Assembly: GCA_949296605.1 (NCBI GenBank)
Contig: CASFPB010000039.1
Coordinates: forward strand, 7,766 to 71,765
Reading direction: 5' to 3'
Length of the DNA stretch: 64,000 bases
Source of the DNA: an uncultured bacterium
GTDB taxonomy: Bacteria > Bacillota_I > Bacilli_A > RF39 > UBA660
Each line of letters begins with the position of its first letter. Positions within the stretch are counted from its first letter, which is position 1. The notes beneath the pieces are model-generated. The model had not been told where the DNA came from and did no database searches. It worked only from the letters and a program-made list of their open reading frames with translations. This document shows positions 10,113 to 45,282 of the stretch, one piece after another. Position numbers and translations under genes: made by a program.

Positions 10113-10150
10113 ATATAATTAAAATTACCATAATAGTAGTAGGTGATTAT

Positions 10151-10351
10151 ATGAACAAAGCTACAAACTATTATTACAAGGGTTATGATATTACAAATAA
10201 AAATAGATTAGAAAAACTTATGTATGAATATTCAAATCCATATGGATACAATTTTGAAAGTAATCAAAAAAGAAATATAGATTATGATTATTTAGCAACA
10301 CATACTAACCAAGATTATGTAAAAAATAAGGAATATATGGGAAAAAGATAG
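10151..10351 (+). CDS. Tyr-rich 66-aa protein (possible CotC/CotU-type spore coat protein)
   Basis: RBS taggtga upstream. Tyr accounts for 12 of 66 residues, with many Lys/Asn/Asp. No other homology recognised. Confidence 0.45.
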   Translation: MNKATNYYYKGYDITNKNRLEKLMYEYSNPYGYNFESNQKRNIDYDYLATHTNQDYVKNKEYMGKR

Positions 10352-10397
10352 CTATTTTATCTTTTTTTTTGTATAATAATAGTTGAGGTGGAAGAAA

Positions 10398-11579
10398 ATG
10401 AAAATATTATCAGTTAATGCTGGAAGCTCATCATTAAAATTTACATTATTTGAAATGCCAGCACAAACAGTTATAGCTAGTGGCTTATTTGAAAAGATAG
10501 GATTAAGTGATAGTTTTTATACAATTAAGATAAATGGTGAAAAAATAACAAAAGAAAAATCACTAGATAATCATTCAATAGCAGTAGAAACATTAATGCA
10601 AGAATTGATTTCTATGAATATTATTAAATCCTTAGATGAAATTGAAGGAGTAGGTCATAGAATTGTTCATGGAGGACCAAATTTTACTAAAACAACATTA
10701 TTAAATGAAGAAATAGTAAAGGAATTAGCTAAAAATGATGATTTAGCTCCATTACATAATAAAGCACATATTATGGGTATCAATGCTTTTATGGAAGCTT
10801 TACCTAATGCAACCCAAGTAGCGGTATTTGATACAGCATTTCATTCAACAATGGATAAAAAAGAATATTTATATCCAGTTCCATATGAATGGTATGAAAA
10901 GTATCAAGTTAGAAAATATGGATTTCATGGAACGAGTCATAGATATATAAATAAAACAATAAGTGAATATTTAAAACGTGATGATTTAAAAGTAATTTCA
11001 TGTCATATAGGAAATGGTGGTAGCGTTACAGCAATAGCATCTGGAAAAGTCGTAGATACTTCAATGGGCTTTACACCACTTGCTGGTATAATGATGGGAT
11101 CACGTTGTGGTGATATAGATGCAAGTATTTTAAATTACGTTAGTAAAAAGACAGGAAAATCACTTGAAGAATTAACAAATGATTTAAACAAAAAAAGTGG
11201 TTTACTTGGAGTTAGCGGCATAAGCAGTGATTCAAGAGATGTAGAAGCTGCTGCAGAAAAAGGAAATGAAAGGGCAATTTTAGCACAAGAAATGTATGCT
11301 CAAAAAGTAGCAAATTATTTAGCAATGTATAATAATTTATTAAATGGGGCTGATGTTATAGTATTTACTGCAGGTGTCGGGGAAAATGGCATAGACATGC
11401 GTAGAATGATTATAGATAAAGTGGCATCTCTTGGAGTTAAAATTGATAATGAAAAGAATAATTTCCGTGGAGAATTTAGATTAATTAGTACTGATGATTC
11501 AAAAATTCCAGTTTATGTAATACCAACAAACGAAGAACTAATGATAGCATTAGATACAATGGAATTTATTAAAGAATAA
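10398..11579 (+). CDS. ackA: Acetate kinase
   Basis: MKILSVNAGSSSLKF N-terminus, RIVHGG, FHGTSH and EELMIA motifs. RBS gaggtgga precedes the ATG at 10398. Confidence 0.92.
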   Translation: MKILSVNAGSSSLKFTLFEMPAQTVIASGLFEKIGLSDSFYTIKINGEKITKEKSLDNHSIAVETLMQELISMNIIKSLDEIEGVGHRIVHGGPNFTKTTLLNEEIVKELAKNDDLAPLHNKAHIMGINAFMEALPNATQVAVFDTAFHSTMDKKEYLYPVPYEWYEKYQVRKYGFHGTSHRYINKTISEYLKRDDLKVISCHIGNGGSVTAIASGKVVDTSMGFTPLAGIMMGSRCGDIDASILNYVSKKTGKSLEELTNDLNKKSGLLGVSGISSDSRDVEAAAEKGNERAILAQEMYAQKVANYLAMYNNLLNGADVIVFTAGVGENGIDMRRMIIDKVASLGVKIDNEKNNFRGEFRLISTDDSKIPVYVIPTNEELMIALDTMEFIKE

Positions 11580-21317: not shown

Positions 21318-21404
21318 AATAAAAAAAGATAACTAAAAAGTAAATAACCGAAAAGTGTTCATTTGACTATATCTTGCATATATTTAATTAGGAAGGTGAT
21401 TTAC

Positions 21405-21941
21405 GTGTCTAGTTATAAAGAAATAGTTACAAAAGCAGTAATAGGTAAAGCTAAAAAGACCAGTAGCAATAAATTTTCTTTAACCCCAGAAGAAATTCCA
21501 AATACTGTTTTAGGTTGTTGGGTAATTAATCACAAATTTAATGGCAGTAAGAATGCTAAAGGAAGTGTTTTAGTTAATGGTTCATTTGATGTAAATGTTT
21601 GGTATTCATATGACTCTGATAAAAAGACTGCTGTAACAACTCAAACTTTTACTTATAGTGATGTTATGAATGTTCCACTTAAAGAAGATCGCAATATGCA
21701 AGATGCATCAGAAATAATTGTTAGATGCTTAAAACAACCCACAGTTTCCAATGTAAAAATAGAAAATAATGTTGTAAGCCTAGATGTCGAAAAAGAAATG
21801 GGTGTAGAAATTGTAGGGGATACAAAAGTGAAAGTTAGTGTGGAAGAAGACGAAGATGATTATGAAGAAATTTTTGATGAACAAGAACTTGATGAAATTA
21901 AAGACATAAACGAAAATTATTTAAATGAAGCATCCGAATGA
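21405..21941 (+). CDS. cotE: Spore coat morphogenetic protein CotE
   Basis: GTG at 21405 follows RBS ggaaggtga. SSYKEIVTKAVIGKAKK...GCWVINHKF...DVNVWYSY...VEIVGDTKVKV plus an acidic tail is colinear with B. subtilis CotE as I recall it. Confidence 0.8.
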   Translation: MSSYKEIVTKAVIGKAKKTSSNKFSLTPEEIPNTVLGCWVINHKFNGSKNAKGSVLVNGSFDVNVWYSYDSDKKTAVTTQTFTYSDVMNVPLKEDRNMQDASEIIVRCLKQPTVSNVKIENNVVSLDVEKEMGVEIVGDTKVKVSVEEDEDDYEEIFDEQELDEIKDINENYLNEASE

Positions 21942-22565: not shown

Positions 22566-22584
22566 ATGCTTAAAAGCATTTTTT
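22564..22584 (+). terminator. Intrinsic terminator closing the rpsP-khpA operon
   Basis: Stem aaatgct(22564-22570)/agcattt(22575-22581), loop taaa, then a T-run. Confidence 0.7.
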
Positions 22585-22610
22585 ATTTTGCCCAAAAGTA
22601 AAGGTTAATA

Positions 22611-22639
22611 TTTAAAAAGATTTCTTATTGTGTTAAAAT
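22611..22639 (+). promoter_or_regulatory. Candidate extended -10 promoter for the giant-repeat operon
   Basis: tttaaa (22611-22616), 17-nt spacer, tgtgt-taaaat (TRTGn + TAAAAT, 22634-22639). It lies 35 nt upstream of the ATG at 22674. Confidence 0.35.
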
Positions 22640-22673: not shown

Positions 22674-25600
22674 ATGGAACAAATATTTTGGGATAACTTC
22701 AAAAATACAGATAAATTATTAATTTTAGATTATGTAGGTAGGCTGCCACTGATATACCAAAAAGCATTACAGGATTGCTATGGTGAAGATTATAATGAAT
22801 TATTAAAAAAGGGAGTTAAACTTATTGATGCCAAAAAAGCTATAAAAAAAATTAATTATTTAATTAATAATCCTAATTATTATGTGCGTGCAACAAATTA
22901 TAATTCAGCTAAAAATTTAAATGGAGAAATAACAGTAAGTGGTGGTAAGCAAAAAGAAGTATATTTAAAAGAAAAAATAAATTGTGATGAAAGCATTTTA
23001 AAAAGAATATCAATAATTTTTAGATTAAATCCAGAATTTAAAATTTTGTATAAATATTTCGGTATAAATTTAGACAAAAGTATTGATGAATTTGAATTGC
23101 CAAGAGAAGATTATGAAACATTAAAAAAACTTTATAAGAATCTTAATGATTTTATAAGTAATAAATCAATTTTAATAAGAAACATTTTAGGTTTAACATA
23201 TAGTGAATTTGTATCTTATTTTGAAAAAGAATTAACGACAAATCCAAAATTAAAAAAATTAAAAAAGCTATGTAAAAAGACCATAATTACTGAGCCTATA
23301 AACTTATTGGATATAGATGATAAAACATTTTTAAGTATAATTAAATGTATTTATTGTTTAAAACCAAATATATTAGTGAATCAAATACTTGCAAATAATA
23401 AATTTAATATTACGTTACAAGAGTTCTTAGATGCAAATGAAAAAGAAATGGATTTTATATTATCCAAAAATGAAAATACTGATGTAGGTAACACTTTAAA
23501 AAATTTATGGCAAGACGATTACACAAAATTATGTATTGATAAAAATAATGATTCTATAAACGAATTAGTAACGATATTAAATGTTCTAATTAATGATTTA
23601 TTTTCATATAGATATTTAATTAAAGTTAAAACATTACAAGAAATATTGGAAGCAACAGAAGAAGAAATAGATTTTTTAAAAAATAATTTATCAAAAGAAA
23701 CATCTTCATATAAAATTATTTCAAAAGTATTTGGAAGTAACTTTAGAGGAACAAATGAGTTAAGATATATGTTGCATGGCAAAGATAATGAAGCATATCA
23801 TAATGCATTATTAAATTTGAAATTAAAACTAAGTAATTATAGAAATGGAAAATCTAGAAAATTTAAAACATTACAAGAATTATTAGGGGCATCAGAAGAA
23901 GAAATAGATTTTTTAAAAAAATATATTAATGATAATTATGAAAAATTTGCTATTATTATTAAAGTCTTTGGGAAAGAATTAAATGGGACAAATGAATTTT
24001 ATAAATATTTAAGCGCCGAAGAAAAAGTAGCATATTCTGAAAAAATTCATATTTTAAGAATAAATTTACAAAAGTTTAGAACAGGAAAATTACATGAATA
24101 TAAAAAATTAAAAGATATATTAAATGTATCAGAAGAAGAAATAGAACACATAAAAAAATACTATCCTAAAACAACAAAAGGCTATCAAATTTTATTAAAA
24201 GTATTTGGAGAAAATTTGGATAATGATGACTCATTATACTGTAATTTATTAGACAAAGAAAAAAATTTATATCGATATACATTGCAAGCTTTAAATATGT
24301 TTTTAAAAGATGGCATTAAAAAATATAAAACTTTACAAGAAATACTTGAAGCAACAGAAGAAGAAATGGAATTTTTAAAACAAAAATATCCTAAAAATAC
24401 AAAAAATTATATTTTGCTTATAAAAGTATTTGGAAATAATTTTGAAAATTCAAATTATAATTATGACAAACTAAATGGGGACGAAAAGAAAAAATACAGA
24501 AGTGCTTTAAAATCAATAAGGAAATTTTTAGAAAAACATAGAAAAAATTTAATAAAAAATGGTAAAACATTAGCCGAAATAATAAAAATATCACCAGAAG
24601 AAATTGAATATATAAAACAACAATATCCTAAAAATACAAAAAACTATAAAATTATAGTTAAGGTATTTGGCATAGAATTAAAGGACACAAATAAAAAATT
24701 AAATTATTTAACCAACGAAGAAAGAAAAACCTACTATAACGCTCTAAATTGCTTAAAAAGATTTATTAAAAGAAGTGAAACAAAGTGTAAACCTAAAACT
24801 TTACAAGAGTTATTAAATGCAACAGAAAAAGAAATAGATTTTTTAAATAAAAAAATATCTAAAAAAACAAAGACTTATACTATATTATCAAAAGTATTTG
24901 GTAATGATTTTAAAAAAACAAATGAATGTTATGATAGTTTAACAACACTAGAAAAAAGAACTTTTTCACAGACAATAATAAGATTAAAAAGCCTTTTAGA
25001 AAAATACAGAGAAACAAAGAAATTTGATTTTAAAACACTTTCCCAAATATTAGGCGCGACAAAAGAAGAAATAGAATTTTTGATGGATGAAACAGATAAA
25101 AGTTCAAAAATTTACAAAGTGATTTTAAAAGTATTTGGAGAGGATTTTGAAGGAACTAACGAAAAGAAGTTTTTATTAAATAATGAAGAAAAAAAGACAT
25201 ATAATAATGCAATATCATCATTAAAAGCTAGATTAAAAAATTATAGGAAAAATAAAAATATTAAATATAAAACTTTACAAGAAATACTTGAAGCAACAGA
25301 AGAAGAAATAGACTTTTTAAGTGAAATTACTCCTAAAAAAACTAAAAATTATGTTGTTCTTGTTAAAGTTTTTGGAGAAAGTTTTAAAGGAACAAATGAA
25401 CTATGTGAACAACTAACTGATGAAGAGAAGGTAACTTATTTTGCAGCAATAAAATCATTATCAGTAAGGCTAAAAAAATATCGTGACAATGGAAAAGATT
25501 ATAAAACCTTGCAAGAAATACTAAATGCAACAGATGAAGAAATAGAATATCTAAATGAAATTTATCCACAAAATACAAGAAGTTATCAATTTTTGGTAAG

Positions 25601-26081
25601 TATGTTTGGAATTGATTTTAGAAATATAGGAAATTTGAATAAATTATCTAGTGAAGCAAATATGTTGTTAAATGATACGATAGCAATATTACAAACATAT
25701 TTATGTATGCAAAGAGAAAATACGAAAGATGGAAATTTACAACAAATCGAAACAGAAGGCCCTGTTGAAATTTTAACAAGTAAAGAATATACAACGGTGG
25801 AAACACCATTTAAACATCCATTTTTTAAAGAATTTTTAATATTACTACCTATTGAATATCAATATATTACAGCATTAAGATTAGGTTTAGTATATGATGA
25901 AAAAATTCATTCCATTGAAGAATTAGCGGAAATATTTAATATTGATATTGAAACCGCAAGAAAAAGATGTTTAAAAGGAATAAACATATTTATATTAATA
26001 ATTGAAAAATATAAAGAATTGTATAATCAAAACATCCCCAATATTGATGCGCTAATAGAAAACATAAAATTAGTTTTATAG
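22674..26081 (+). CDS. Giant helical-repeat protein (1135 aa), sigma-less paralog: FW-x-NF linker module, degenerate repeats, 9 clear ~75-79 aa repeats, C-terminal sigma-region-4-like HTH
   Basis: Uninterrupted 3.4-kb ORF with RBS aaagga. The repeat consensus is KTLQEILxATEEEIxFLK..Y.IL.KVFG..F..TN.....L..EEK..Y..A...L...L..YR. The C-terminus reads TPFKHPFFKEFLILLPIEYQYITALRLGLVYDEKIHSIEELAEIFNIDIETARKRCLKGI. Confidence 0.85.
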   Translation: MEQIFWDNFKNTDKLLILDYVGRLPLIYQKALQDCYGEDYNELLKKGVKLIDAKKAIKKINYLINNPNYYVRATNYNSAKNLNGEITVSGGKQKEVYLKEKINCDESILKRISIIFRLNPEFKILYKYFGINLDKSIDEFELPREDYETLKKLYKNLNDFISNKSILIRNILGLTYSEFVSYFEKELTTNPKLKKLKKLCKKTIITEPINLLDIDDKTFLSIIKCIYCLKPNILVNQILANNKFNITLQEFLDANEKEMDFILSKNENTDVGNTLKNLWQDDYTKLCIDKNNDSINELVTILNVLINDLFSYRYLIKVKTLQEILEATEEEIDFLKNNLSKETSSYKIISKVFGSNFRGTNELRYMLHGKDNEAYHNALLNLKLKLSNYRNGKSRKFKTLQELLGASEEEIDFLKKYINDNYEKFAIIIKVFGKELNGTNEFYKYLSAEEKVAYSEKIHILRINLQKFRTGKLHEYKKLKDILNVSEEEIEHIKKYYPKTTKGYQILLKVFGENLDNDDSLYCNLLDKEKNLYRYTLQALNMFLKDGIKKYKTLQEILEATEEEMEFLKQKYPKNTKNYILLIKVFGNNFENSNYNYDKLNGDEKKKYRSALKSIRKFLEKHRKNLIKNGKTLAEIIKISPEEIEYIKQQYPKNTKNYKIIVKVFGIELKDTNKKLNYLTNEERKTYYNALNCLKRFIKRSETKCKPKTLQELLNATEKEIDFLNKKISKKTKTYTILSKVFGNDFKKTNECYDSLTTLEKRTFSQTIIRLKSLLEKYRETKKFDFKTLSQILGATKEEIEFLMDETDKSSKIYKVILKVFGEDFEGTNEKKFLLNNEEKKTYNNAISSLKARLKNYRKNKNIKYKTLQEILEATEEEIDFLSEITPKKTKNYVVLVKVFGESFKGTNELCEQLTDEEKVTYFAAIKSLSVRLKKYRDNGKDYKTLQEILNATDEEIEYLNEIYPQNTRSYQFLVSMFGIDFRNIGNLNKLSSEANMLLNDTIAILQTYLCMQRENTKDGNLQQIETEGPVEILTSKEYTTVETPFKHPFFKEFLILLPIEYQYITALRLGLVYDEKIHSIEELAEIFNIDIETARKRCLKGINIFILIIEKYKELYNQNIPNIDALIENIKLVL
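23628..25740 (+). repeat. Nine in-frame tandem coding repeats, period 225-237 nt
   Basis: Unit starts (K-T-L codons) fall at 23628, 23865, 24102, 24327, 24564, 24795, 25032, 25269 and 25503. A 47-nt perfect direct repeat occurs at 24321-24367 and 25263-25309. Confidence 0.9.
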
Positions 26082-26093
26082 AAAGGAGGATAA

Positions 26094-29000
26094 ATGAAAA
26101 ATAGTATTTTATTATATCAGCTTATGCAAGAATATGGTTTTTATAATAAATCAAGTGAATTTTATATTGAAATTATAAAAAAATATGAAATAAATGGCGA
26201 AGTTAATAGACAAGACATAATAAAAATTAGAGAAAGTATATTAAAAAAAATAAAAGGGGATATAAAGAATTTAAATATTGATTGGCTTATAAAGTTGTTC
26301 TTAAAAGTTAAAACGTTAAGTGATTTATCAAAGTTATTAAATTTATTAAATAAATATAATATAGTTTTAGATTTTAGTTTAATTGAAAATTTAATAAATA
26401 ATAATTCGCAAGTTGATGCTTTAATATTTAACTTTTTAAAAAAAGGAAAAAATATAACAATTTCATATATAGATAGAATTAGTGATAATGAGTTAGTAAC
26501 TGAACTTTTAATTGCCTATGCAACTATAAAAAATATCTTAACAAATGAATCAGAAAAAGAAGCAAACGAATATTATGAAGATGAAACTAAAAATTCTAAA
26601 ATTGATGATTCAATAGGCATGTATTTAAAAGAAATAGGTAGCATACCATTATTATCAAAAGAAGAAGAACTTGAATTATTTAAAAAGATAGAAATGGGCA
26701 GTAAACAAGCAAAAGATAGAGTAATTGAAGCAAATTTACGTCTAGCAGCTTCTATTGCCAAAAAATATTTGAACAAAGGTTTAGGGCTACAAGACCTTAT
26801 TCAAGAAGGAAATATAGGGATTATGAAGGCAGTAGAAAGGTTTGATTATAAGAAGGGATACAAATTTTCTACTTACGCAACTTGGTGGATTAGACAAACT
26901 ATTACAAGGGCAATAAGTGAACAATCTAGAACAATTAGAGTGCCAGTTCATATGAGTGAAGATATAAAAAACTTACATATAGCTAAAAATAATTTATCAA
27001 TTAAGCTAAATAGAGAACCAACTATTGAGGAAATTGCAGAAGTATTAAACATGACTTCAGATAAAGTATTAGAAATAATTAGATTTGACACAGAAACATC
27101 AACAGCATCATTAAATGCTACAGTTGGTGATGAAGATGATTCAGAGCTAGGGAATTTCATTGAAGATACTTTTTTTGAATCGCCAACAAAAACATTTGAA
27201 CAAAAAGATTTAAGTATTAGATTAAATGAAATGCTTAATGAGTTAAAAGATAGAGAAAAATCGGTTATAATGTATAGATTTGGTTTAATAAATGGAAAAC
27301 CTTATACACTTGAGGAAATAGGTATAATATTTAATGTTACAAGAGAAAGAATAAGGCAAATAGAAGCAAAGGCATTAAGAAAATTAGGTAACCCTGTAAG
27401 AGCTAAAAAAATAAAAGATTATTATGAATTTGAAGATGTTGATTGCAGAATATCAAAAGGATTTTGGAATAATTTTGCACATTATACAAAAGATATTGTT
27501 TTTTTAATAATTGATAATGATCTTGAAGAAAATTTAAAAAATGCACTATATGGAGTTTTCGGAAAAGATTTATCAAAAGTAAAAATTAAAAATTCAAGTG
27601 AAACAACAAAAGCAATAGAAGCAATTGAAGCAATTAAAACAATTTTAAAAACAAAAGATCAAAGTCAATACGAAATAACTTTACAAGAATATTTAAAAGC
27701 AACCGATGAAGAATATGAAAATTTAAAAAAGATTATTATATGTTCTTCTTACTGTGAAATATTATCAGAATTATTTGGTAGTAATTTTGATCAACCAAAA
27801 TCAGGTATAATAGCATCGCCAAGTAATGAGGCAACTTATTATAATATTGCATTTTGTTATTTAAAAAATTGTTTAAATAAACGATGCGAAGTTCTACCTG
27901 AATTTAGATTAGGAACGCTACAGGAGATACTTAATGCAAGCAAAGAAGAAATAAAATATTTAAAAGATAGCGTATTAAGTAAAACGGCTAACCGTTCTAT
28001 AATAATAAAAGTTTTTGGAAATAACTTAGATCAAATAAATTCAGGTTATTATGAATTAGAATATAGTGAAAAAAATAAATATTTTAAATCTATTTCGTAT
28101 TTAAAAAAAGAATTAACTAATTACAGAAAATTAAATTCAAGTAATAATATAACTTTGCAAGAAATACTAAATGCAACTGATGAAGAAATGTTATTTATAA
28201 AATGTAAAATTATAAATGATTCTTATTTTCAAATAATATTAAGAGTTTTTGGAAATGAATTAAATCAAACAAATAAAAGCTTTAATGAATTAAGCGAAGA
28301 AGAAAAAATAGAATATAATAAATGTATAAGAAGTTTAAAAGACAAAATACGAGGATTTAGAGTATTTAACAATAATAGAAGAAATTTGCAAAAGTATTTA
28401 AACGCATCTGATGAAGAAATGGTTTATTTAAATCAAACGTATATAGCTTCAGCAAAATTAAAAAATATTATCTATGGAATATATGGTGAAAATTTAAACG
28501 AATTTAACGTTTATTTTTACGCTAGCTTATCTGATAAAGAGTTATTTAATTATAGTTCATTTATAACAAATTTGCAAAAAAAATTAGAAAAACATCGCCA
28601 TGAGCAAAAAGATTGTAAAACTATTCAAGAACTTTTAGAACTATCAAATGAAGAATTAGAATTAATTAGACTTTATTATATAAATAAATCAGATAGATAC
28701 CAAATATTAATAGAAGTATTCGGAGAAAATTTAGACCAAACAAATAAAATAGTTTGTTCATTTAATAATCATAAAAATCAAACCTATAATAACGCTTTAA
28801 ATGATTTAAGAAAAACAATAAAAACGCATAGAGAAATAGTAGGCGTTGGAAAAACTATTTTTGAAATTTTAAATATGTCAATTGACGAATTTAATTTGAT
28901 TAAACAAAACTTTTCACAAAATTTTGCAAATTTTAATGTTTTAATAAAAGTATTTGGGGATAATTTTGATAAAACCGATGAAAACTATCATAATTTATCA

Positions 29001-29699
29001 ATTGAAGAAAAAGTAGAATATATTAAAGCATTAGAAGAGTTTACTAATTGTTTGATATCTGTTAGAACATACAAAACTAAACATCAAACATTACAAGAAA
29101 TACTGGGAGCTACAGAAGAAGAAATAGCATTTATAAAAGATAATTATCCACAAAATACAAAAAATTATGATATTTTAGTCAAAGTCTTTGGCATAGATTT
29201 CACAAATAATAATTATAATCTAACTGAATTAAATGATTTTGAGAAAGGTCAATACTACCGAGCAATAAATTGTTTAAGAAAATATTTAAAAAATTATAGG
29301 AAAGGTAAAAATAAATTACCTAAAAAAGAAGAGTCAAAATTACCAAATGATACTACTAAAATAGATAAACAAGATGACATAGAATATTTGGATGCATTAC
29401 CTGATATAAATTTAAATGAAATTAAAACACCTTTTACGCATCCATATTTTCAAGAATTTATTAATATTTTACCAGAAGAGTATCGTATTATAACTGCTAA
29501 AAGAATGGGATTAAGTGATGGTTGCATCCATTCTTTAACAAGCCTAGCAAAAGAATTTAAAATAAGTCCAAAAGAAGCTTATGATAAATGCGAAAATGGT
29601 ATAGCATTATTTATATTTATAGTTAAAACATACCAAACCACATTTAATAAAGAATTACCAATTTTAGATTTAGATATGTTATTAAAACGTCTTATATAA
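26094..29699 (+). CDS. Giant sigma-70 fusion protein (1201 aa): novel N-domain + complete SigA/RpoD-like regions 1.2-4.2 + 7 helical repeats + second, C-terminal sigma-region-4-like HTH
   Basis: Strong RBS aaaggagga, 12 nt after the upstream stop. The sigma core (nt ~26604-27427) has [77 protein letters not shown] and [28 protein letters not shown]. It is then followed by ~760 further aa. Confidence 0.88.
27675..29320 (+). repeat. Seven in-frame tandem coding repeats, period 231-237 nt
   Basis: The T(L/I)Q-E-I-L codon anchors fall at 27678, 27915, 28152, 28383, 28620, 28854 and 29088. The unit is the same as in 22674..26081. Confidence 0.85.
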
Positions 29700-29702
29700 A
29701 AA

Positions 29703-30395
29703 TTAAATATTTTTGTTTTTAATAAATTCAGTGAGCATTTTAGTAAGTGCTCTTTTTTCAATTCTAGAAACATAACTTCTAGATATTTTTAACTCTTTTG
29801 CTATTTCTTTTTGCGTCATTTCCTTAGTATTAAATAATCCATATCTTTTAACTATAATTTCTTTTTCTCTATCATTTAAAAGATTTAGATATTTATTTAA
29901 TAAATTAATATTGTTTTTAATTTCAAGTTGGTCAAATAAATCTTTATCCTTATCTTTTATTACATCTATTAAGCTTATTTCATTTCCATCTTTATCATAC
30001 CCAATAGCATCATTTAAACTAACAGTAACATTAACATGTTTATTAGCTCTAAAATGCATTAATAATTCATTTTGAATACATCTAGCAGCATAAGTAGTAA
30101 TTTTTGTTTTTTTATCATTATTATATGTATCAATTCCTTTAATAAGACCAATAGTTCCAATACTTATTAAATCATCAGTATCAACATCTTTGGTATCAAA
30201 CTTTTTAACTATATGTGCAACCAAACGTAAATTGTGCTCAATAAGTTTATTGCGAGAATTCTTATCTCCATTTAACATATCATTTATACATTTTTCTTCT
30301 TCTATAGCATTAAGTGGTTCAGGAAAAACATTATTAGAATAGCTTCCTGTAAAAAATAACATATCTTTAATAATATTAAACAAATTAAATAACAT
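29703..30395 (-). CDS. sigK: Sporulation sigma factor K precursor (pro-sigma-K), uninterrupted
   Basis: YSNNVFPEPLNAIEEEKCI..GDKNSRNKLIEHNLRLVAHIVKKF..DDLISIGTIGLIKGIDTY..TYAARCIQNELLMHFR matches SigK rather than SigE (HNLRLVAHIVKKF). It carries a ~20-aa hydrophobic pro-sequence. The ATG at 30395 follows RBS agaggtg; the track start 30401 is a GTG inside the RBS. Confidence 0.85.
   Translation of the reverse strand: MLFNLFNIIKDMLFFTGSYSNNVFPEPLNAIEEEKCINDMLNGDKNSRNKLIEHNLRLVAHIVKKFDTKDVDTDDLISIGTIGLIKGIDTYNNDKKTKITTYAARCIQNELLMHFRANKHVNVTVSLNDAIGYDKDGNEISLIDVIKDKDKDLFDQLEIKNNINLLNKYLNLLNDREKEIIVKRYGLFNTKEMTQKEIAKELKISRSYVSRIEKRALTKMLTEFIKNKNI
29733..29758 (+). terminator. Plus-strand intrinsic terminator for the giant-repeat operon, embedded in the 3' coding end of sigK (opposite strand)
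   Basis: Stem gagca(t)(29733-29738)/(g)tgctc(29747-29752) followed by a 6-T run (29753-29758). Confidence 0.5.
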
Positions 30396-30419
30396 AAACA
30401 CCTCTATACTTTATTTTAT

Positions 30420-30447
30420 TTGCAATTTTGAAATAATATGTTAAAAT
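30420..30447 (+). promoter_or_regulatory. Extended -10 promoter for the third giant sigma-repeat gene (divergent from sigK)
   Basis: ttgcaa (30420-30425), 16-nt spacer ending TGn, taaaat (30442-30447). It lies 28 nt upstream of the ATG at 30475. Confidence 0.5.
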
Positions 30448-30474
30448 ATATAACTATTACTGGGGGAATTAATA

Positions 30475-32802
30475 ATGGATATAAGTGTGATTGTAGAAAA
30501 ATTAAGTGAAGAATTTTCTTTTTACAATAAACCATACGAATATTATTTTAAAATATGTAATGAAATATTATGTGATGATGCAAATTTAATGTATAAATTT
30601 TGTTATGAAAAAGTAGTTTTAGATATAAAAAACGATTGGAAAAGTTTAAAAATTGGTTGGTTTATTGCAATATTTAAAGAAAATTTAAATGGAATGTTAG
30701 AAATATTAACTAAATTTGGATTAGTGATAGATAATACTAATTTTAAGCAAATTATAAAAAAATATCCTGATTTTGAAAATGTTTTAAGTGATTTAGTAGA
30801 AAATGATGCTTACTTAGATGAAAATGAAACATTAAAAAAACTAATTAAATTATACTTAAGTTATACAGAAAGCAAAATGAAAAATAAACAAGATAAGGAT
30901 ATATTATTGTGGGAAGAACAATTAGAAATATTTAAGATTTTAAAAGAATTAAGTAAAGAACCAGAAAAAAATAAAACTTTCATAGCTTATTATTATGATT
31001 TACTAGTAGAGCAATATAAAAATTTTGTTCGATCCCTAATACCAAAATATGAACAAGAAAAAGTAGAATATGATGATTTAGTTCAAGAAGGATTCATTGG
31101 ATTAATTAATGCAATTAGAAATTTTGATTATACAAAGGGTTATAAATTTTCATCATATGCTTATGTTGTTATAAAAAACGTTATTAGGAAATACATAAAT
31201 AAAAACATTAGATCAATAAGAATTCCTGATTCAATGTTAAACGATTATTTTAGAATAATATATACTCAAAGAGATTATTATATGTTAAATGGAAAAGAAG
31301 CAAGCGAAGAAAAACTATCAGAAATGTTAGGTATGTCAATAGAAAAAATTAGAAATGTTTTAATGTGCTGTGAAGATACAATATCATTATATGATTCTTT
31401 GGGTAGGGGACCAGAAGAAGCAGAATATACTTTATTATGTGCAATAAAAAATGAATCGTCCCCATTACCAGATGAAATATATGAAAGAAAACAAATAAAT
31501 TTGATGATAGAAGAATTGTTTAGTGTTTTAACAGGCATTCAAAGAAAAGTAATTGAACAATATTTTGGATTTTATAATCAAAAACCTAAATCAATTCAAA
31601 ATATAGCAGATGAACTTGGTTGTTCAAGAGAAAATATAGATCAAATAAGAAGTAATGCATTAAAACGAATGAGAAAACACCTAGCTGATAAAAAGAATAA
31701 TGATTTAAATACCTTTAGTAAATTTTCGTTAAATACAAATTATTTTTGGTATAACTTTATAGGCTTTAAAAAGTCAGATGTATTAGAAGCTATAAACGAA
31801 CTTGTAAATGAAAAAAAATTAAGTGAATTAGAGCAAAAATCCTTAATTGATAGATTTGGTAAAAAATATAATTTATTAAATAAAGTAGATGAAGAAACAA
31901 TAAAAGTTGTTAGTGTATCTATAGAAAAGATAAAAGAAAAACTTCTTGAAATACGAAAACGAAAATCGATGTTAAAAACAAAGATTGAAATAGGTAGTTT
32001 AATGGATATTTTAGATGCAACGATTGATGAAATAAAATATCTTAGATCAACTAGGAAAAAAGATAGTAAAAGCATAAATTTACTTACTAGATTATTTAAT
32101 GATGATTTTTTAAGAGAAGGATTAATACCAGTTTATTTAAGTAAAACTGAATTAAGAACTTATTATTCTGCTATAAGTGCATTAAGAGAATCATTAAAAC
32201 TTTATAGAAAAAAAGAAGAAACTAAAAGATATTACTTTGGCTTAACATTAAAACAAATATTAAATATAACTACTGAAGAAATTGAATTTTTAAAAAGAAC
32301 AATTAATCCTAAATCTGCTTATTATTCAGTATTAACTAAATGTTTTGGAACTTCATTAGAAGAAGAAAATAAAAATGAAAAATTGGATGAAAAAGAATTA
32401 AAATTATTAAAAATTGCTATAAGCAAAATGGAAGTATTAATTTTTTATTATAGAGAAGAAGAAACTAAAAGACTATTAAAAATCTATAGCTATTTTAACA
32501 TGCCTGAAGAAACTAATGAAAAAGTTGTTACACCATTTAGCAACCCAAGATTTAAATTGTTTATTCAATGCTTACCTGATGAGCTACAAATTATAACAGC
32601 GATGAGAATCGGAGCTGATAATGGCGTTATTAAATCGATATTTGAAATTGCAATGTATTTAAATGAAGATGAAGAAGAAGTAAGAAGAAAATGTGAAATA
32701 GGAATAAATTTGTTTAAAACGTTAGTAAGTGAATATAAAAATGAGTATGAAAATGATTTTGAAACATTTTTAATACAAAGTAGAAAAAAATACGGTAAAT
32801 AA
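30475..32802 (+). CDS. Giant divergent sigma-70 fusion protein (775 aa): N-domain paralogous to 26094 gene + divergent sigma regions 2-4 + FW-x-NF linker + 2 repeats + C-terminal sigma-region-4-like HTH
   Basis: RBS ggggga upstream. Region 2 reads DDLVQEGFIGLINAIRNFDYTKGYKFSSYAYVVIKNVIRKYI, where the Trp dyad is replaced by VV. Region 4 reads LTGIQRKVIEQYFGFYNQKPKSIQNIADELGCSRENIDQIRSNALKRMRKHL. The C-terminus reads TPFSNPRFKLFIQCLPDELQIITAMRIGADNGVIKSIFEIAMYL. Confidence 0.85.
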   Translation: MDISVIVEKLSEEFSFYNKPYEYYFKICNEILCDDANLMYKFCYEKVVLDIKNDWKSLKIGWFIAIFKENLNGMLEILTKFGLVIDNTNFKQIIKKYPDFENVLSDLVENDAYLDENETLKKLIKLYLSYTESKMKNKQDKDILLWEEQLEIFKILKELSKEPEKNKTFIAYYYDLLVEQYKNFVRSLIPKYEQEKVEYDDLVQEGFIGLINAIRNFDYTKGYKFSSYAYVVIKNVIRKYINKNIRSIRIPDSMLNDYFRIIYTQRDYYMLNGKEASEEKLSEMLGMSIEKIRNVLMCCEDTISLYDSLGRGPEEAEYTLLCAIKNESSPLPDEIYERKQINLMIEELFSVLTGIQRKVIEQYFGFYNQKPKSIQNIADELGCSRENIDQIRSNALKRMRKHLADKKNNDLNTFSKFSLNTNYFWYNFIGFKKSDVLEAINELVNEKKLSELEQKSLIDRFGKKYNLLNKVDEETIKVVSVSIEKIKEKLLEIRKRKSMLKTKIEIGSLMDILDATIDEIKYLRSTRKKDSKSINLLTRLFNDDFLREGLIPVYLSKTELRTYYSAISALRESLKLYRKKEETKRYYFGLTLKQILNITTEEIEFLKRTINPKSAYYSVLTKCFGTSLEEENKNEKLDEKELKLLKIAISKMEVLIFYYREEETKRLLKIYSYFNMPEETNEKVVTPFSNPRFKLFIQCLPDELQIITAMRIGADNGVIKSIFEIAMYLNEDEEEVRRKCEIGINLFKTLVSEYKNEYENDFETFLIQSRKKYGK
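31996..32480 (+). repeat. Two in-frame copies of the helical repeat unit (period ~249 nt)
   Basis: SLMDILDATIDEIKYLRS...LLTRLFNDDF... and TLKQILNITTEEIEFLKR...VLTKCFGTSL... Confidence 0.7.
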
Positions 32803-38575: not shown

Positions 38576-39733
38576 GTGCAATTTAGAGATTATATAGAAT
38601 TACCTGATGCTAGTGGTAATAATTTTTATTATCATCCAGAACAATTAACTCCAATAAAAGAAGAAATAGAAGAATTTTTAACATTAAGTCCTGAAATATC
38701 AGATTTACACTTAGCTAAAAAAGTTTTATTTTCTCACGAAATACAATCAAATAATCAAGTTGAAGGTTATGGTTATGATGTCAGCCTAATAGAAGATGTT
38801 ATAAAAAGGAAAACTCAAAGAGTAAAAAGTGAAGTTGTTAAAAGAAGAATAGAAAATCTTTATCGAGGATATCAATATATTTTAAGACATAGAAAAATAG
38901 ATGAAGAACATTTAAGAGAATTATATCAAATATTAAGTAAAGATTTGATTGAATATAGAGACTTAATTAGAATGGGAGAATATTATAGGACTGATACAGT
39001 TTATATTTTACGTAATGGCAGATTACATGATAGCGCAATTGATGAAGGAGTTTTATGGACACAGATTCCATATTTAATTGGAAAATATTTTGAATTTTTA
39101 CATTCTTTAAGTTTTAATGAATCTATGACTGATGAATATATAAAATCCCAAATTATGCATTTTTATTTTGTGTTTATTCATCCATATTTTGATGCAAATG
39201 GAAGAACTTCAAGAACTATGGCCTTATGGTATTTGTTAAATAAGAAAGATTATCCTTTTATAATATTTAATCGTGGAATTAGTTTTGCAGGTGCAAAATA
39301 TGGTAAATTAATTGCTGATGCAAAAGATACAAAAGATTTAACAAAATTTTTAAATTTTATGTTAGAAACAGTAAAATTAGAAATGGAAAAAGAAACTGTA
39401 ATGCAAACAATAGCTAATAATTGTAATCATAGATTAAATGGAGTAGATTATCAAACACTTTTATATTTTTTAAGTATGAAAAGAAATAAAACAGTAACTG
39501 ATTTTGCGGCGTTCTATAACCAAAAAAATGAAAAGAAAAGAGTATTTGAAATATATAAAGAAATGATTTTACCTTTGATTGAAATGGATATTTTAGAAGT
39601 AGTAGGGTATTCTAAAAAAATGTTTTCCCCAGATTTAAATAATATGTTTTTAGAATTAAATCCTCAAATAGTTCCAAAAGAGGAAGATATGCAATTAAAA
39701 AGATTGAAAGTATTTCAATCTTCTAAAAAGTAA
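38576..39733 (+). CDS. Fic family protein (AMPylase-type)
   Basis: Catalytic motif HPYFDANGRTSR (HxFx[DE][AG]NGRxxR) and an N-terminal Fic_N-like helix ..NNQVEG... GTG start follows RBS aaggggga. Confidence 0.85.
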   Translation: MQFRDYIELPDASGNNFYYHPEQLTPIKEEIEEFLTLSPEISDLHLAKKVLFSHEIQSNNQVEGYGYDVSLIEDVIKRKTQRVKSEVVKRRIENLYRGYQYILRHRKIDEEHLRELYQILSKDLIEYRDLIRMGEYYRTDTVYILRNGRLHDSAIDEGVLWTQIPYLIGKYFEFLHSLSFNESMTDEYIKSQIMHFYFVFIHPYFDANGRTSRTMALWYLLNKKDYPFIIFNRGISFAGAKYGKLIADAKDTKDLTKFLNFMLETVKLEMEKETVMQTIANNCNHRLNGVDYQTLLYFLSMKRNKTVTDFAAFYNQKNEKKRVFEIYKEMILPLIEMDILEVVGYSKKMFSPDLNNMFLELNPQIVPKEEDMQLKRLKVFQSSKK

Positions 39734-41145: not shown

Positions 41146-42174
41146 TTAGTTTTTAATTGCTTTTTTGTTTGTCCAAATTTTAATATATATTAACATAAAT
41201 AATAAAATCATAAATATAAATAGTATAGTAGGAAAACTTTTATATATTATCATTGAATTATAAAAGTTATTAGCAGTATATTGATTAACTATAATTAATA
41301 GTATTAGATTTATTAAAAATGGTATATAACTTTTTTTAACATTTATAATATTTTTAATCTTTAATGAACTAACTGACATACAAATAAATATATCAAAAAA
41401 CCATCCTACTGAAATAAAATTTTCAATATTTTCAATAAATTTGAAAAAGCTTATTTTTCTTAAAACAGAATACTCAGGATAACTATAAATATTTACTAAG
41501 TTTCCTAAAACAATTGTTAAAGTTAACACTACTACTAGAATTGTAAATGAACTAATTAAATAATATTTTAAACTGTTTTTAAAGTCTATATTTTCATCTA
41601 CTAATGTGATAAATGGAGCAGTAGATAAAATTGCAAATATTAAACTAGTTTTAAATATATTAGTAGGTTTAGTAGTAAAAAAGGGAAGTAAATTATTAAA
41701 ATCAAATTTATTTGTCAAAAGACAAGTTTTTAAAATAATTAAAACAATACTTATAACAAATAATATTTGGGCAACATATATTATCTTTTTTATAGATTTT
41801 GTGTTTAAAAAAGATGCTAAAAATATGAATGGTAAACAAGAAATAATTGATGGAGTAAATGGAAGGAAATATGAATATAAAAAAGTGGATAAAATAATTA
41901 GTAAGACAAAAATTCCAAATAAAATGAAACCTATTAGTATAATTTTAATTATAATGCTTAAAATAGAATCATTTTTTAAAAATGAGCTTAAAGGCATATT
42001 TATCTTTTTTTTAAAATAATTTATTAAATAAATTACAGCGATTCCTAAAAGTGAACCTAATATCACTGAAATGTATGCATCTTTATCACTGTATAAAAAT
42101 AAAATTGAAATACCACCACCTAAAAACAAACTACGAGCTAAAAAGTAAGTTAAAATATTAGAATTATTTTTCAT
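41146..42174 (-). CDS. Spore germination receptor B subunit (GerKB/GerAB-type permease-like)
   Basis: About 10 TM segments and the last gene of the A-C-B operon. ATG at 42174 follows RBS gaggtg. Confidence 0.7.
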   Translation of the reverse strand: MKNNSNILTYFLARSLFLGGGISILFLYSDKDAYISVILGSLLGIAVIYLINYFKKKINMPLSSFLKNDSILSIIIKIILIGFILFGIFVLLIILSTFLYSYFLPFTPSIISCLPFIFLASFLNTKSIKKIIYVAQILFVISIVLIILKTCLLTNKFDFNNLLPFFTTKPTNIFKTSLIFAILSTAPFITLVDENIDFKNSLKYYLISSFTILVVVLTLTIVLGNLVNIYSYPEYSVLRKISFFKFIENIENFISVGWFFDIFICMSVSSLKIKNIINVKKSYIPFLINLILLIIVNQYTANNFYNSMIIYKSFPTILFIFMILLFMLIYIKIWTNKKAIKN

Positions 42175-43240
42175 CGTGCACCTCATAAATTAAACCCTTT
42201 TTATTAATATTGAAATTAATATTACTTTTTATTTTTAAATTTAACCAATAATTTTCTTCTTTTTCTCTAGTTTTTTGATAATAGCTTTTTGATAATCCTA
42301 AAATATCACTCTTATATTTTTGAATTTTTTCTAAAAAGTTATTAAGTTTATTATTCATTATATTAGTAAAATCATTATTTAAATTATTTAAAACTTCTAA
42401 ACTTCTTATATCATAATTAGTTTCATTATCCATTATCTTTCCTTCTAAGCCACCTTCAACAAAAATCTTATTATCTGATATATATGTTTTTGTATCACCT
42501 GATATAATAGCTACAGAAAAATACAGATTATCGTATTCTTTAGAAAAAATTGGACGATAAAAATTATTTGTTAATATATTATAAATAGTAGCTTCATCAT
42601 TATTTAGTTTTTCTTTAAATTCATATTCATCAAATATTAATAAACCATCTATTTTAAATTGTTCATCATTTAAAGTAATATTTGAAAAACAAGTATCAAT
42701 ACCAAAAGTTATAATTTCATCAATCACTTGATCAAATGTTTTCATAACACTACTATTTGATGAATAATTATTACTTTCTAAAAGAGATATAATACTTGAA
42801 CTAACTACAGGATTATTTTTAGTAGTGTTATTAAGTATTTCTTTTGGAGATGAATCAATTGATGAAATAACGTAAAAATTTTCTCTAAAATATGTGCTTC
42901 TTATAAAATAATCAATTATAGTTTGAAATTTATCCTGAATAATAGAATCACTCAAAATCATTAATTTAACATGAGTATAATTTGCTTTATCTGCAATTAA
43001 ATCAGCAGTTTTTTCTATTGCTTTAGCAAGTGATTTATCACTATTTGTTTTAGTATATGAACTAATTTTAGATGATTCTTTATCACCAGAATCATTTAAT
43101 ATTTCTAATGTGATAATATATTTATCATCCTCATAATCAATTCCAATAGCACTAACAATACCTAAATTATTTACTTCTTGATAATCATAACAGCCGGAAA
43201 GTAAAAAAATAAAAGTAAGTAATAAAATTGCTTTTTTCAT
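42164..43240 (-). CDS. Spore germination receptor C subunit lipoprotein (Ger(x)C)
   Basis: Lipobox LLSGCY. NLGIVSAIGIDYEDDKYIITLEI is the typical GerAC N-terminus. RBS aaaggagga upstream. Confidence 0.8.
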   Translation of the reverse strand: MKKAILLLTFIFLLSGCYDYQEVNNLGIVSAIGIDYEDDKYIITLEILNDSGDKESSKISSYTKTNSDKSLAKAIEKTADLIADKANYTHVKLMILSDSIIQDKFQTIIDYFIRSTYFRENFYVISSIDSSPKEILNNTTKNNPVVSSSIISLLESNNYSSNSSVMKTFDQVIDEIITFGIDTCFSNITLNDEQFKIDGLLIFDEYEFKEKLNNDEATIYNILTNNFYRPIFSKEYDNLYFSVAIISGDTKTYISDNKIFVEGGLEGKIMDNETNYDIRSLEVLNNLNNDFTNIMNNKLNNFLEKIQKYKSDILGLSKSYYQKTREKEENYWLNLKIKSNINFNINKKGLIYEVHDEK

Positions 43241-44682
43241 TCTTTATCCTCCTTTTGTTTAATGATATTTTTATGAGTAAATAAGGTCGAGCGTTTAACA
43301 TCCTTTTTAATTGAAGATTTTAATACGGAGTTATTAAAGTAAGTTTTTTCAAATGGAGCTATCGGAGCAAAGTAAGGTTTTTTAAAACTTGTTATATTTG
43401 TGGTATAAATTAGAAAATATAAGAAACCTAAGGTTAGACCATATAATCCAAAGAAACCAGCTAGAATAATAAAAATAAATCTAAAAAATCTTAATGAATT
43501 ATTTATCTCAACATTAGTAAATGTTAAACTAGAAATAAATGTAATAGCAATAATAATTATCGTAATAGGGGATGCTATACCAGCAGAAACAGAAGCTTCA
43601 CCCAAAACAATTGCACCTAAAATGGATATAGCTGAACCATAATTTGAAGGAAATCTCAAATCGCTTTCTCTTAATATTTCACAAACTAATAGCATTAAAA
43701 TTGTTTCAATAATGGTTGGAAAAGGAACTCCATTACGCTGGATTGCAAAATCAATTAAAAGGTTAGTAGGTATAGTTTCTTGATTATAATTCATTATTGC
43801 AATGTAAAGTGCCGGCGCCATCATTGAAATAAAATAAGCAAAAAATCTTAAAATTTTAATAAAATTTATATTTTTACTTTTATTGTAATTATCAATATTT
43901 GGATTAATAAAATCTATAAAAAAAGCTGGAATAATCAAAGCATATGGAGAAGTGTCAATAACTAATGCTATTTTTCCTTCTAGTAAAGCAGTAGCTACCA
44001 TATCTGGCCGTTCTGTTTGTAAAAATGTAGGATATACATTTTTGGTTTCTTCATCTAATAAAAAACCTATAGAACTAGAATCAATAATCCCATCAATATC
44101 AATATTATCTAATTTTTTTAATATTTCTTTTACTAAATCCTCATCGGTAATATCATCAAAATACAAAACTCCAACATTAGTGTTAGTTTTTCTACCTATA
44201 ATTCTATTTTCAATTTTTAAATGACTAGATTTAATTCTTCTTTTTATTAATCCCACATTTATTTGATAATTTTCTGTAAAAGAATCTTTAGGACCATTAA
44301 TAGAAGTTTCAACATCAGCATTAGAAATACTTCTATTTATATCTGCTCTAGTTTCTACTGCAACAATTACATCTTTAAAAATAACAATTGTAAAACCATT
44401 TGTTAAATAAAACTCAATTTCATCTTCCGAAACATTTTTTTTAGTATTTGGTCCTGCTAAAAAAGATAATAAATTTTGTTTATTTATTTTATTATTAGTT
44501 TTTCCTATAATAATATTTTTAAGTATATAATCATTAATTTTATCACTACCACTAACTGTTTCTAAATAGACAACGTATAAAGTATTTAACAAATTTAATT
44601 TTATTTCTTTGATAATTAAATCTGGTGTTTTATTAAATTCTTTTTTTACTCTTTCAACTATTTTATTCAAGGTTATCACCAT
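43237..44682 (-). CDS. Spore germination receptor A subunit (GerKA/GerAA-type)
   Basis: Soluble N-domain plus 5 C-terminal TMs. Contains RADINRSISNADVETSINGPKDSFTENYQINVGLIKRRI and ERPDMVATALLEGKIALVIDTSPYALIIPA. Confidence 0.85.
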   Translation of the reverse strand: MVITLNKIVERVKKEFNKTPDLIIKEIKLNLLNTLYVVYLETVSGSDKINDYILKNIIIGKTNNKINKQNLLSFLAGPNTKKNVSEDEIEFYLTNGFTIVIFKDVIVAVETRADINRSISNADVETSINGPKDSFTENYQINVGLIKRRIKSSHLKIENRIIGRKTNTNVGVLYFDDITDEDLVKEILKKLDNIDIDGIIDSSSIGFLLDEETKNVYPTFLQTERPDMVATALLEGKIALVIDTSPYALIIPAFFIDFINPNIDNYNKSKNINFIKILRFFAYFISMMAPALYIAIMNYNQETIPTNLLIDFAIQRNGVPFPTIIETILMLLVCEILRESDLRFPSNYGSAISILGAIVLGEASVSAGIASPITIIIIAITFISSLTFTNVEINNSLRFFRFIFIILAGFFGLYGLTLGFLYFLIYTTNITSFKKPYFAPIAPFEKTYFNNSVLKSSIKKDVKRSTLFTHKNIIKQKEDKE

Positions 44683-44775: not shown

Positions 44776-45282
44776 ATGAAAGAAGAAATACTTTATAATG
44801 GTAATAAAAAAATACATAAAAAAGAAATGTTTATAATATTGGTAGCATATATTTTTGTAATATTTATAATACCGTATTTATTATTGCATTTTGATATTGT
44901 TAAAGTATATGCAACAACAGAAGCATGGAAAATTAAAGGAAATGTAAATTTAGCCTTTATAATAATGATTATTTTTGAATTATTAAGTGGAATTATAGTA
45001 GGGTATAAAACTAATAAGAGTTTAGTTTATATATTAATGATTATATTAAGTTTTCTTATAAAACTAATATTATATATATTATTTTCAGTCATTTTATTTT
45101 GGACTATTCAAAGTTTTTTTACAGATATGGAATTTTTAAATTCAAGACTAATAATTTCTTATTATGCATTTAATAATATATTTTTTATTACTCATTTACT
45201 AGGCTTACCTAGTATATTAGGAGTTCAAATAGGAATAATTCTAAAAAATAAATTAGGAGTTAAACATGGAAGTAAAAATTGA
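44776..45282 (+). CDS. Hypothetical membrane protein (168 aa)
   Basis: Four or five hydrophobic segments. RBS aatggag upstream. Confidence 0.5.
   Translation: MKEEILYNGNKKIHKKEMFIILVAYIFVIFIIPYLLLHFDIVKVYATTEAWKIKGNVNLAFIIMIIFELLSGIIVGYKTNKSLVYILMIILSFLIKLILYILFSVILFWTIQSFFTDMEFLNSRLIISYYAFNNIFFITHLLGLPSILGVQIGIILKNKLGVKHGSKN

Follow-up and report, generated by a model that had tools for sequence, protein, structure and literature searches.

Few bacterial proteins have been studied as closely as the sigma factors of groups 1 to 3, which end at region 4 in all accounts that we know of or found. Those of group 2 are roughly 300-400 amino acids (aa) long, with nothing past region 4, and are to our knowledge not a described feature of the Bacilli. 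Here we describe three paralogous giant genes (open reading frames ORF1, ORF2 and ORF3) that lie around a pro-sigK gene in a 64-kb stretch of contig CASFPB010000039.1 from an uncultured bacterium; the whole stretch, 23-24% GC throughout, is referred to as the window. As judged from comparison of their sequences, the three belong to a family that has not been described before and is confined to one lineage of low-GC Bacilli, all uncultured. Group 2 is defined by a primary-like core and the lack of sigma region 1.1 (PMC4598750). Its members, which are non-essential and include cyanobacterial SigB-E, HrdA/C/D of Streptomyces and RpoS, share with the giant proteins a core of regions 1.2-4 near that of group 1, the absence of region 1.1 and the occurrence of multiple paralogs per genome; the proteins described here differ in the 360-750 aa that follow region 4, made up of repeats and a second sigma-4 domain, and in a domain of ~140 aa ahead of region 1.2 (the N-domain).

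The literature searched holds no account of this architecture, and C-terminal extensions are described there only for the minimal extracytoplasmic function (ECF) group of sigma factors. In ECF41, ECF42 and others, among them Planctomycetes factors with large extensions, a fused C-terminal module is thought to regulate the activity of the factor itself; such extensions change more rapidly than the core and are not the same in recently duplicated factors (PMC4598750, PMC7671368). As sigma factors fused to a regulatory C-terminal module they are the nearest precedent for the extension, or arm, of the giant family. However, ECF factors have sigma-2 and sigma-4 only, whereas ORF2 and ORF3 also carry regions 1.2 and 3 and score best on RpoD models, far above the generic ECF superfamily model, which sets them outside the ECF group; moreover, no ECF extension in the literature searched is a tandem series of 79-aa units with another sigma-4 at its end.

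Two further systems bear comparison. The only PADLOC match was MzaA of the MZA anti-phage system, likewise a large (~700 aa) sigma-70 protein with a primary-like core and an uncharacterised extension. In MzaA, however, the core is C-terminal (model positions 428-716) and the extension N-terminal, only the sigma core aligns with our proteins, and no Mza partner genes lie nearby; against the full-length model ORF2 reached 323 bits and ORF3 114, below the cut-off of 800, with the alignment spanning model positions 474-716. A sigma-4 fold outside a sigma factor is found in stand-alone helix-turn-helix (HTH) proteins of the UPF0122/YlxM and LuxR/GerE types, as it is in the C-terminal domain (CTD) of ORF1; the PDB matches of the CTD profile include UPF0122 chains (1xsv, E 0.0015). 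Those proteins are small and DNA-binding, whereas here an acidic domain stands at the end of a repeat protein of more than 1000 aa and the basic recognition helix is absent.

The arms of the family were without a match in Pfam, NCBIfam, PADLOC and PHROGs, the last two returning nothing beyond the sigma core and noise, and the repeat unit has no sequence relative in the PDB. Family members are named in no source searched, and 'Onthocola', the genus of one traced host, appears in the literature searched only in taxonomic lists. An earlier reading of this stretch, made from its letters alone (the sequence-only reading), had known of no described family of this kind; that view is borne out, and the characterised family that would have overturned it was not found in the databases searched. 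By these comparisons three features are undescribed in everything searched: the unit, the acidic sigma-4 at the end of the chain, and the joining of both to a core like that of group 1. We favour, with a probability of roughly 0.45, a reading that makes ORF2 and ORF3 group-2-like sigma factors of an accessory kind, each fused to a regulatory arm, and ORF1 a derivative that has been truncated at its 5' end. If true, a primary-like sigma factor with long new repeats and an acidic sigma-4 would constitute a new route to regulate or target RNA polymerase.

Architecture of the giant proteins

The three ORFs are intact, lie on the forward strand and have exactly the coordinates that the sequence-only reading had given them. 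ORF1 (22674-26081, 1135 aa) is sigma-less and comprises a head, a nine-unit array, a tether and a sigma-4-like CTD; ORF2 (26094-29699, 1201 aa) comprises the N-domain, an RpoD-like sigma core, a cap module, a seven-unit array and the CTD; and ORF3 (30475-32802, 775 aa) has the N-domain, a divergent sigma core, a cap module, two units and the CTD. Across the 64-kb window the unit and CTD profiles gave meaningful E-values for these three ORFs alone, with region 4 of SigK touched faintly.

Long ORFs of this kind might be assembly artefacts, such as the collapsed or chimeric repeats that the sequence-only reading had named as a possible objection, or decaying pseudogenes: the source genomes are short-read metagenome assemblies, and four near-identical units in one allele of ORF1 (strain L001, see below) could be miscounted. 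We consider either origin extremely improbable. The units are 41-82% identical at the DNA level, exact repeats in the 10-kb region do not exceed 47 bp, and Tandem Repeats Finder (TRF) detected no DNA-level tandem array in the region. Four further assemblies of this species also contain all three ORFs in intact form and between the same neighbours (an ENA metagenome contig, a GTDB metagenome-assembled genome (MAG) and two from Logan/ENA), and the exact ORF2 protein is present in an independent assembly. In comparisons with two strains, the ratio of non-synonymous to synonymous substitution rates (dN/dS) was 0.10-0.60 in all segments, arrays included, and 0.17-0.34 over whole genes (0.34 for ORF1 against strain L002), with 0.08-0.11 for sigK and polA; all segments are thus under purifying selection. 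DNA divergence, independent assemblies and dN/dS effectively refute the artefact and pseudogene readings, and the architecture is kept across ~77 clusters of relatives. On this evidence the three giants are maintained coding genes under somewhat relaxed constraint.

An embedded sigma-70 domain had been proposed for two of the three proteins, which stands for ORF2 throughout and for ORF3 with one region on the borderline. The ORF2 core (26601-27431, aa 170-446) matches the Pfam models of regions 1.2 (43 bits), 2 (77), 3 (55.5) and 4 (64), placing it in the sigma-70 family. In the ORF3 core (30904-31707, aa 144-411) regions 2 (66.5 bits) and 4 (45) are above their cut-offs, and region 3, at 24.9, is just under 25.3; by its domains ORF3 likewise belongs to the sigma-70 family. 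With zero sigma domains in the Pfam and NCBIfam scan, ORF1 is by its domain content not a sigma factor. The region 2.4 and 4.2 motifs of ORF2, YATWWIRQ and VTRERIRQI, are the same as in canonical RpoD, to which its core is 55-59% identical; the recognition motifs of ORF3 have diverged, region 4.2 reading CSRENIDQI. On the NCBIfam RpoD equivalog (PRK09210) ORF2 scored 373.7 bits and ORF3 120.9, below the cut-off of 572. Having region 1.2, a core near group 1 and no region 1.1, ORF2 displays the sequence features of group 2, and by its domains ORF3 fits there as well.

No match to region 1.1 (PF03979) was found by Pfam in ORF2 or ORF3. Its place is taken by the family-specific N-domain (in ORF2 26094-26543, aa 1-150), which is common to ORF2 and ORF3 (BLASTP 2e-9; leave-one-out profile 1e-24), in agreement with the sequence-only reading. 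An identification of the N-domain as region 1.1 was rejected, in view of the missing PF03979 match and an hhalign E-value of 0.15 between the N-domain profile and canonical N-termini.

The CTD is common to all three ORFs, at 25797-26078 in ORF1 (aa 1042-1135), 29421-29696 in ORF2 (aa 1110-1201) and 32524-32793 in ORF3 (aa 684-773), and has 24 invariant columns. A profile built from the window sequences alone matched sigma-4 with an hhalign probability of 94% (E 1e-7), with PDB matches that are weak and consistently in register. When 35 family members were included the probability rose to 97.1% (E 5.8e-11) over 57 columns covering helices 4.1-4.2, and SigA/RpoD region-4 chains in the PDB were matched at E 1.2e-5 to 5e-3. 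The domain is therefore a true sigma-4 homolog, as had been suspected, although it probably does not serve as a second HTH reader of DNA. The median net charge of the CTD is -2 (isoelectric point, pI, 5.7), compared with +2 to +9 (pI 9.4-10.1) for sigma-4, and the segment equivalent to the recognition helix has a median net charge of -1 as opposed to +4 in sigma-4. The arginine positions that contact the -35 element (R-E-R-x-R-Q) are mostly Glu or Asp in the CTD, which lacks the basic recognition helix. Because it is acidic and without the -35-contacting arginines, the CTD is probably a protein-binding mimic of sigma-4.

Between the cores and the CTDs lie arrays of a ~79-aa unit. The unit profile finds nine full copies in ORF1 (23628-25727, aa 319-1018), seven in ORF2 (27675-29312, aa 528-1073) and two in ORF3 (31993-32466, aa 507-664), each at E <= 1e-15, the same counts as in the sequence-only reading; a wider profile adds a tenth, degenerate copy at aa 97-164 of ORF1 (22962-23165), the one degenerate unit of the head (22674-23627, aa 1-318). 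AlphaFold2 predicts for every unit a short helix, two helices, in some units a further short helix, and a long helix of 25-29 residues, with a predicted local distance difference test score (pLDDT) of 75-90. Conservation is concentrated at mostly hydrophobic positions, one Glu and an 'FG' pair. The unit gave only sub-threshold noise in Pfam (LemA, HHH_2), nothing significant in NCBIfam and a best E >= 0.07 in a profile search of the PDB, where no sequence relative was found. With the family comes a new helical repeat of ~79 aa, variable between strains both in copy number and in sequence.

Two AlphaFold2 models were made, of ORF3 (mean pLDDT 81) and of a sigma-free construct of four units and the CTD. 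In both, the domains and units fold at pLDDT 75-90 and the predicted template modelling score (pTM) is 0.28-0.31; this suggests that the units are arranged like beads on a string, their mutual arrangement not being confidently predicted. The tether between the last unit of ORF1 and its CTD (25728-25796, aa 1019-1041) falls in a segment predicted to be disordered, with pLDDT below 50 at model residues 312-342 (aa 1019-1049 of ORF1).

A segment of the unit, 'xTLxEILxxSxEE', is HTH-like and is matched best, though weakly, by the HTH portions of sigma-3 and sigma-4. In a Foldseek search with the sigma-free model the listed PDB matches were all sigma factors and the viral ones largely so, at E >= 0.01 and template modelling (TM) scores of 0.1-0.2. 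These likenesses, the sigma-4 HTH fold of the CTD and the chance density of promoter-like hexamers in the window would fit an alternative in which array and CTD bind DNA, the units reading extended or distal promoter elements or tethering the sigma factor to the AT-rich nucleoid, which would give extra promoter discrimination in a 23% GC genome that abounds in -10-like hexamers. We think this improbable: the similarity of the unit to sigma-3, sigma-4 and the CTD by hhalign is non-significant (E 0.002-0.2), also when the profile was built from double units (permutation-proof) or from 157 units, the units vary in net charge between -4 and +9 and share no conserved basic face, and the CTD is acidic with its DNA-contact arginines gone. 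For the same reasons of non-significant profiles and marginal Foldseek matches, derivation of the unit from sigma-4, sigma-3 or the CTD was not established, and a sigma-domain origin of the repeat is no more than a lead.

In ORF2 and ORF3 the sigma-4 region is followed by an F-W-x-N-F motif, with which ORF1 opens (FWDNF, encoded at 22686-22700). It had been read as a linker module shared by the three proteins; the motif is indeed present in all of them, but the module that carries it is probably a degenerate first unit of the array. It aligns in register with the 'L..xFG' and long helix of the unit, weakly so by hhalign (E 0.009, probability 5%), and in ORF3 (31708-31992, aa 412-506, with FWYNF) its predicted helix pattern is unit-like; the assignment in ORF2 (27432-27674, aa 447-527) is a weak one, made by analogy with the ORF3 model. 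That the module is a conserved linker domain of its own was rejected as the less likely interpretation, the motif being rare in the wider family. Since ORF1 begins at this motif, its most plausible origin is 5' truncation of a sigma-bearing gene, with loss of sigma-2 and sigma-3.

Accessory and housekeeping readings

The sequence-only reading had seen in these proteins a new class of transcription machinery. Its structural side, with sigma-70 cores, helical repeats and a region-4-like CTD, holds; the role in transcription is read from the domains only. In the archetype, represented by ORF2, ORF3 and most of their relatives, the N-domain, which is helical, stands in place of region 1.1 and is followed by a sigma-70 core of regions 1.2-4, a chain of helical units, a tether predicted to be disordered and a diverged, acidic copy of sigma-4. 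The residues for -10 and -35 recognition are still of the primary type in ORF2, which should therefore form a holoenzyme that reads TTGACA/TATAAT-like promoters, and ORF3, with its diverged recognition residues, would read others. The extension would act as a fused regulatory arm whose sigma-4 mimic binds a partner of sigma-4, be it the beta-flap, an anti-sigma factor or activator, or the sigma domains of the same chain; the arm would modulate or localise sigma activity, with the repeats as an adjustable spacer or scaffold. ORF1, unable to act as a sigma factor, would probably operate in trans via its own copy of the arm, as a competitor or a partner of ORF2 and ORF3. The family may thereby offer a natural experiment on a tethered sigma-4 mimic, whether by competition for the beta-flap, by capture of anti-sigma factors or activators, or by autoinhibition.

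Whether ORF2 is accessory bears strongly on its significance, since the finding would be considerably more important if it were the housekeeping sigma factor. ORF2 and its counterparts in sister genomes would then be the only primary sigma of the lineage, equipped with a ~750-aa repeat/sigma-4 extension and a new N-domain, and ORF3 and ORF1 would be specialised or degenerate duplicates. ORF2 does keep region 1.2 and all primary-type motifs, its identity to canonical RpoD is as near as a very AT-rich sigma A might be, and YATWWIRQ is present in one or more members from each genome examined. The primary sigma gene is a single, highly conserved and essential ortholog, in Firmicutes typically found in a dnaG-sigA operon; none was found in the window or just beyond either end. 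In a composition screen of the best 120 of at least 8000 RpoD-like matches there was no AT-rich canonical sigA apart from ORF2's own fragment, and GC contents of 39-51% were found for the source genomes of the best-scoring full-length match and of two among the most identical matches. Against this, the search for a canonical sigA covered those best 120 matches and not the genome itself, the sigma cores of the family in sister species are only 38-53% identical to that of ORF2 where SigK is 81-83% and PolA 75-77% identical across the clade, and ORF2 reaches 374 of the 572 bits required by the RpoD equivalog, has no region 1.1 and does not adjoin dnaG. Genomes of the clade hold one to three copies, and gene order around sigK differs between species, as expected for accessory genes. 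We therefore regard a sole housekeeping role as unlikely, and among the sigma readings place accessory ahead of housekeeping by roughly 3 to 1.

Several points nevertheless weigh against accessory sigma factors with a flexible, protein-binding arm. ORF2 could still be a primary sigma factor, given the outcome of the composition screen. An acidic CTD surface leaves room for DNA binding. The low pTM may stem from shallow alignments (26-30 sequences) and not from real flexibility, and the low identity between species may in part reflect differential retention of paralogs instead of a fast rate. A bolder scheme, which we hold to be unlikely, can also be put forward: a principal or principal-like sigma factor of 750-1600 aa, used throughout a clade of spore-forming gut Bacilli, its core permanently tethered via a novel chain of variable length to a region-4 mimic that does not bind DNA, would combine sigma and anti-sigma or adaptor in one polypeptide, with arm-only paralogs such as ORF1 as trans regulators and divergent array alleles tuning strains.

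Distribution and variation of the family

An exhaustive HMMER search with the unit profile identified 77 cluster representatives (50% identity clusters) among 1.84 billion proteins. Their commonest architecture is N-domain, sigma core, one to ~7 units and CTD; a subset is without a sigma core, and over the whole family the chain comprises one to ~12 units. All members that could be traced come from uncultured Bacilli of 23-29% GC, including Candidatus Onthocola stercoravium (GTDB MAGs), and the window's own species is represented by MAG CALVXN01 (97% identity). The family is a marker of an uncultured and extremely AT-rich lineage of the gut, in which the machinery of transcription may be unusual.

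A check of distribution and neighbourhood, which the sequence-only reading had called for, showed the family to be clade-wide and mostly situated beside sigK and polA. In four species the same slot was recognised, with the order rpsP-khpA, sigK on the reverse strand, giant gene or genes, polA and fpg; the giant genes number one to three and their order around sigK varies. PolA, SigK, RpsP and Fpg are 75-86% identical between species and the giants 26-37%, and in a close pair of genomes (L004 and L007) the giant gene is 80% identical as compared with 84-91% for its flanks. The low identity of the giants is probably due to a raised rate mixed with differential retention of old paralogs. Between khpA and polA, other species also have unrelated ORFs of 323-802 aa that could not be annotated, and in one sister species an insertion sequence (IS)-type integrase (rve + HTH_21; L005:5461-6270, reverse strand) lies between khpA and sigK. 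The chromosome is otherwise syntenic, and the slot seems to be one of its variable regions.

Sigma-less forms look like truncations, because of the motif at which ORF1 starts, a 696-aa member in L004 that opens with a residual region 4, and a split gene in a sister species. In the latter (L006:8820-12219) a 280-aa ORF with sigma regions 2-3 only is followed after 10 nucleotides (nt) by an 848-aa ORF with three units, and the pair looks like a family member divided by a frameshift or a natural break. In other species, two members that consist of the array alone occupy unrelated chromosomal slots. A 1312-aa array-only member with ~12 units is found in another species between SASP/ThiI and ackA (L011:3456-10291), where the genes immediately before it encode two proteins with repeated PF03457 'HA' (helicase-associated) domains; in the window nothing occupies the same ThiI-ackA slot (~8922-11579).

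Within the window's species the array of ORF1 occurs as two deeply divergent alleles. Between strain L001 and the window, neighbouring genes are 97-98% identical at the nucleotide level and the head and tail of ORF1 93-100%, whereas the array interior (~2 kb, ~23630-25600, against L001:1715-3900) drops to 57-85% with sharp edges; strain L002 carries the window-type array, 99-100% identical. The two alleles are collinear, with a unit-to-unit identity of 58-66%, and that of L001 has one unit type four times, giving ten units as opposed to nine. The synonymous divergence (dS) between the alleles is 0.51, compared with 0.05-0.12 nearby, and their dN/dS is 0.43. Because of this excess in dS we consider the alleles to be far older than the strains, and either imported by recombination or long maintained.

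Such variation raises the possibility of a conflict or defence system, in which sigma-4 mimics on variable arms would serve as decoys or sensors for phage proteins that target region 4 of the host sigma factor; this would explain both the turnover of paralogs and the array alleles. Besides the dimorphic array of ORF1, the variable copy number and low interspecies identity within a conserved slot, the IS-type integrase in that slot of L005 and the match of the sigma core to MzaA, a sigma-like protein of an anti-phage system, are compatible with such a role. The PADLOC match, however, is to the generic sigma core only, with 323 of 800 bits on the NCBIfam MzaA model, the neighbours are housekeeping genes and not a defence island, dN/dS is below 1 everywhere, and phage, plasmid and viral collections, including scans of IMG/VR for close relatives, yielded no relatives. 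A defensive function is consequently quite improbable, and a regulatory arm on accessory sigma factors is preferred.

Putative expression signals and neighbouring genes

ORF2 begins 12 nt past the stop codon of ORF1, and because of this short gap the two genes probably form a single operon. The intact pro-sigK gene reported by the sequence-only reading to lie antisense between ORF2 and ORF3 was verified (29703-30401, reverse strand, 232 aa), with 312 bits on the NCBIfam SigK subfamily model against a cut-off of 252; it is convergent with ORF2 and divergent from ORF3. The stop codons of ORF2 and sigK are 3 nt apart, and the only terminator-like hairpin of ORF2, followed by a T-run (29733-29752, forward strand), lies 34 nt past its stop codon, inside the 3' coding end of sigK.

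The locus had also been said to have its own promoters and to follow a terminator that closes rpsP-khpA. Candidate signals of both kinds are present, with less force than was claimed. Directly past the khpA stop codon a weak terminator-like hairpin can be read (22566-22589, forward strand; ATGCT-TAAA-AGCAT, then a T-run), which has 5 bp; because only two of these are G-C pairs, the terminator scan gave no call there. Promoter-like sites, which are consensus matches only, precede ORF1 (22611-22639, forward strand; TTTAAA, a 17-nt spacer and TAAAAT, with a TG extended -10) and ORF3 (30420-30447, forward strand; TTGCAA, a 16-nt spacer including TGT, and TAAAAT). Both have a TGnTAAAAT extended -10-like box, and the same 9-mer, TGTTAAAAT, stands before ORF1 (22631-22639) and ORF3 (30439-30447) at a similar distance from the start codon. 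Promoter and terminator scans are uninformative at 23% GC, with 82 promoter sites found and 93 expected, so that such matches are not enriched in this AT-rich DNA.

Elsewhere in the window a GerXA-like spore germination gene is located at 43237-44682, within a reverse-strand segment (41146-44682) that includes two adjoining unannotated ORFs; together with pro-sigK it confirms, as far as gene content goes, the spore-forming lifestyle of the host. A Fic-domain protein is encoded at 38576-39733. The ORFs at 46514-48373 (619 aa), 55303-57090 (595 aa) and 44776-45282 (168 aa) had no NCBIfam match at E <= 1e-5 and are, by that measure, lineage-specific proteins. Just upstream of rpsP, a 192-aa ORF with an acidic C-terminus (21363-21941) is 71-77% conserved across the clade.

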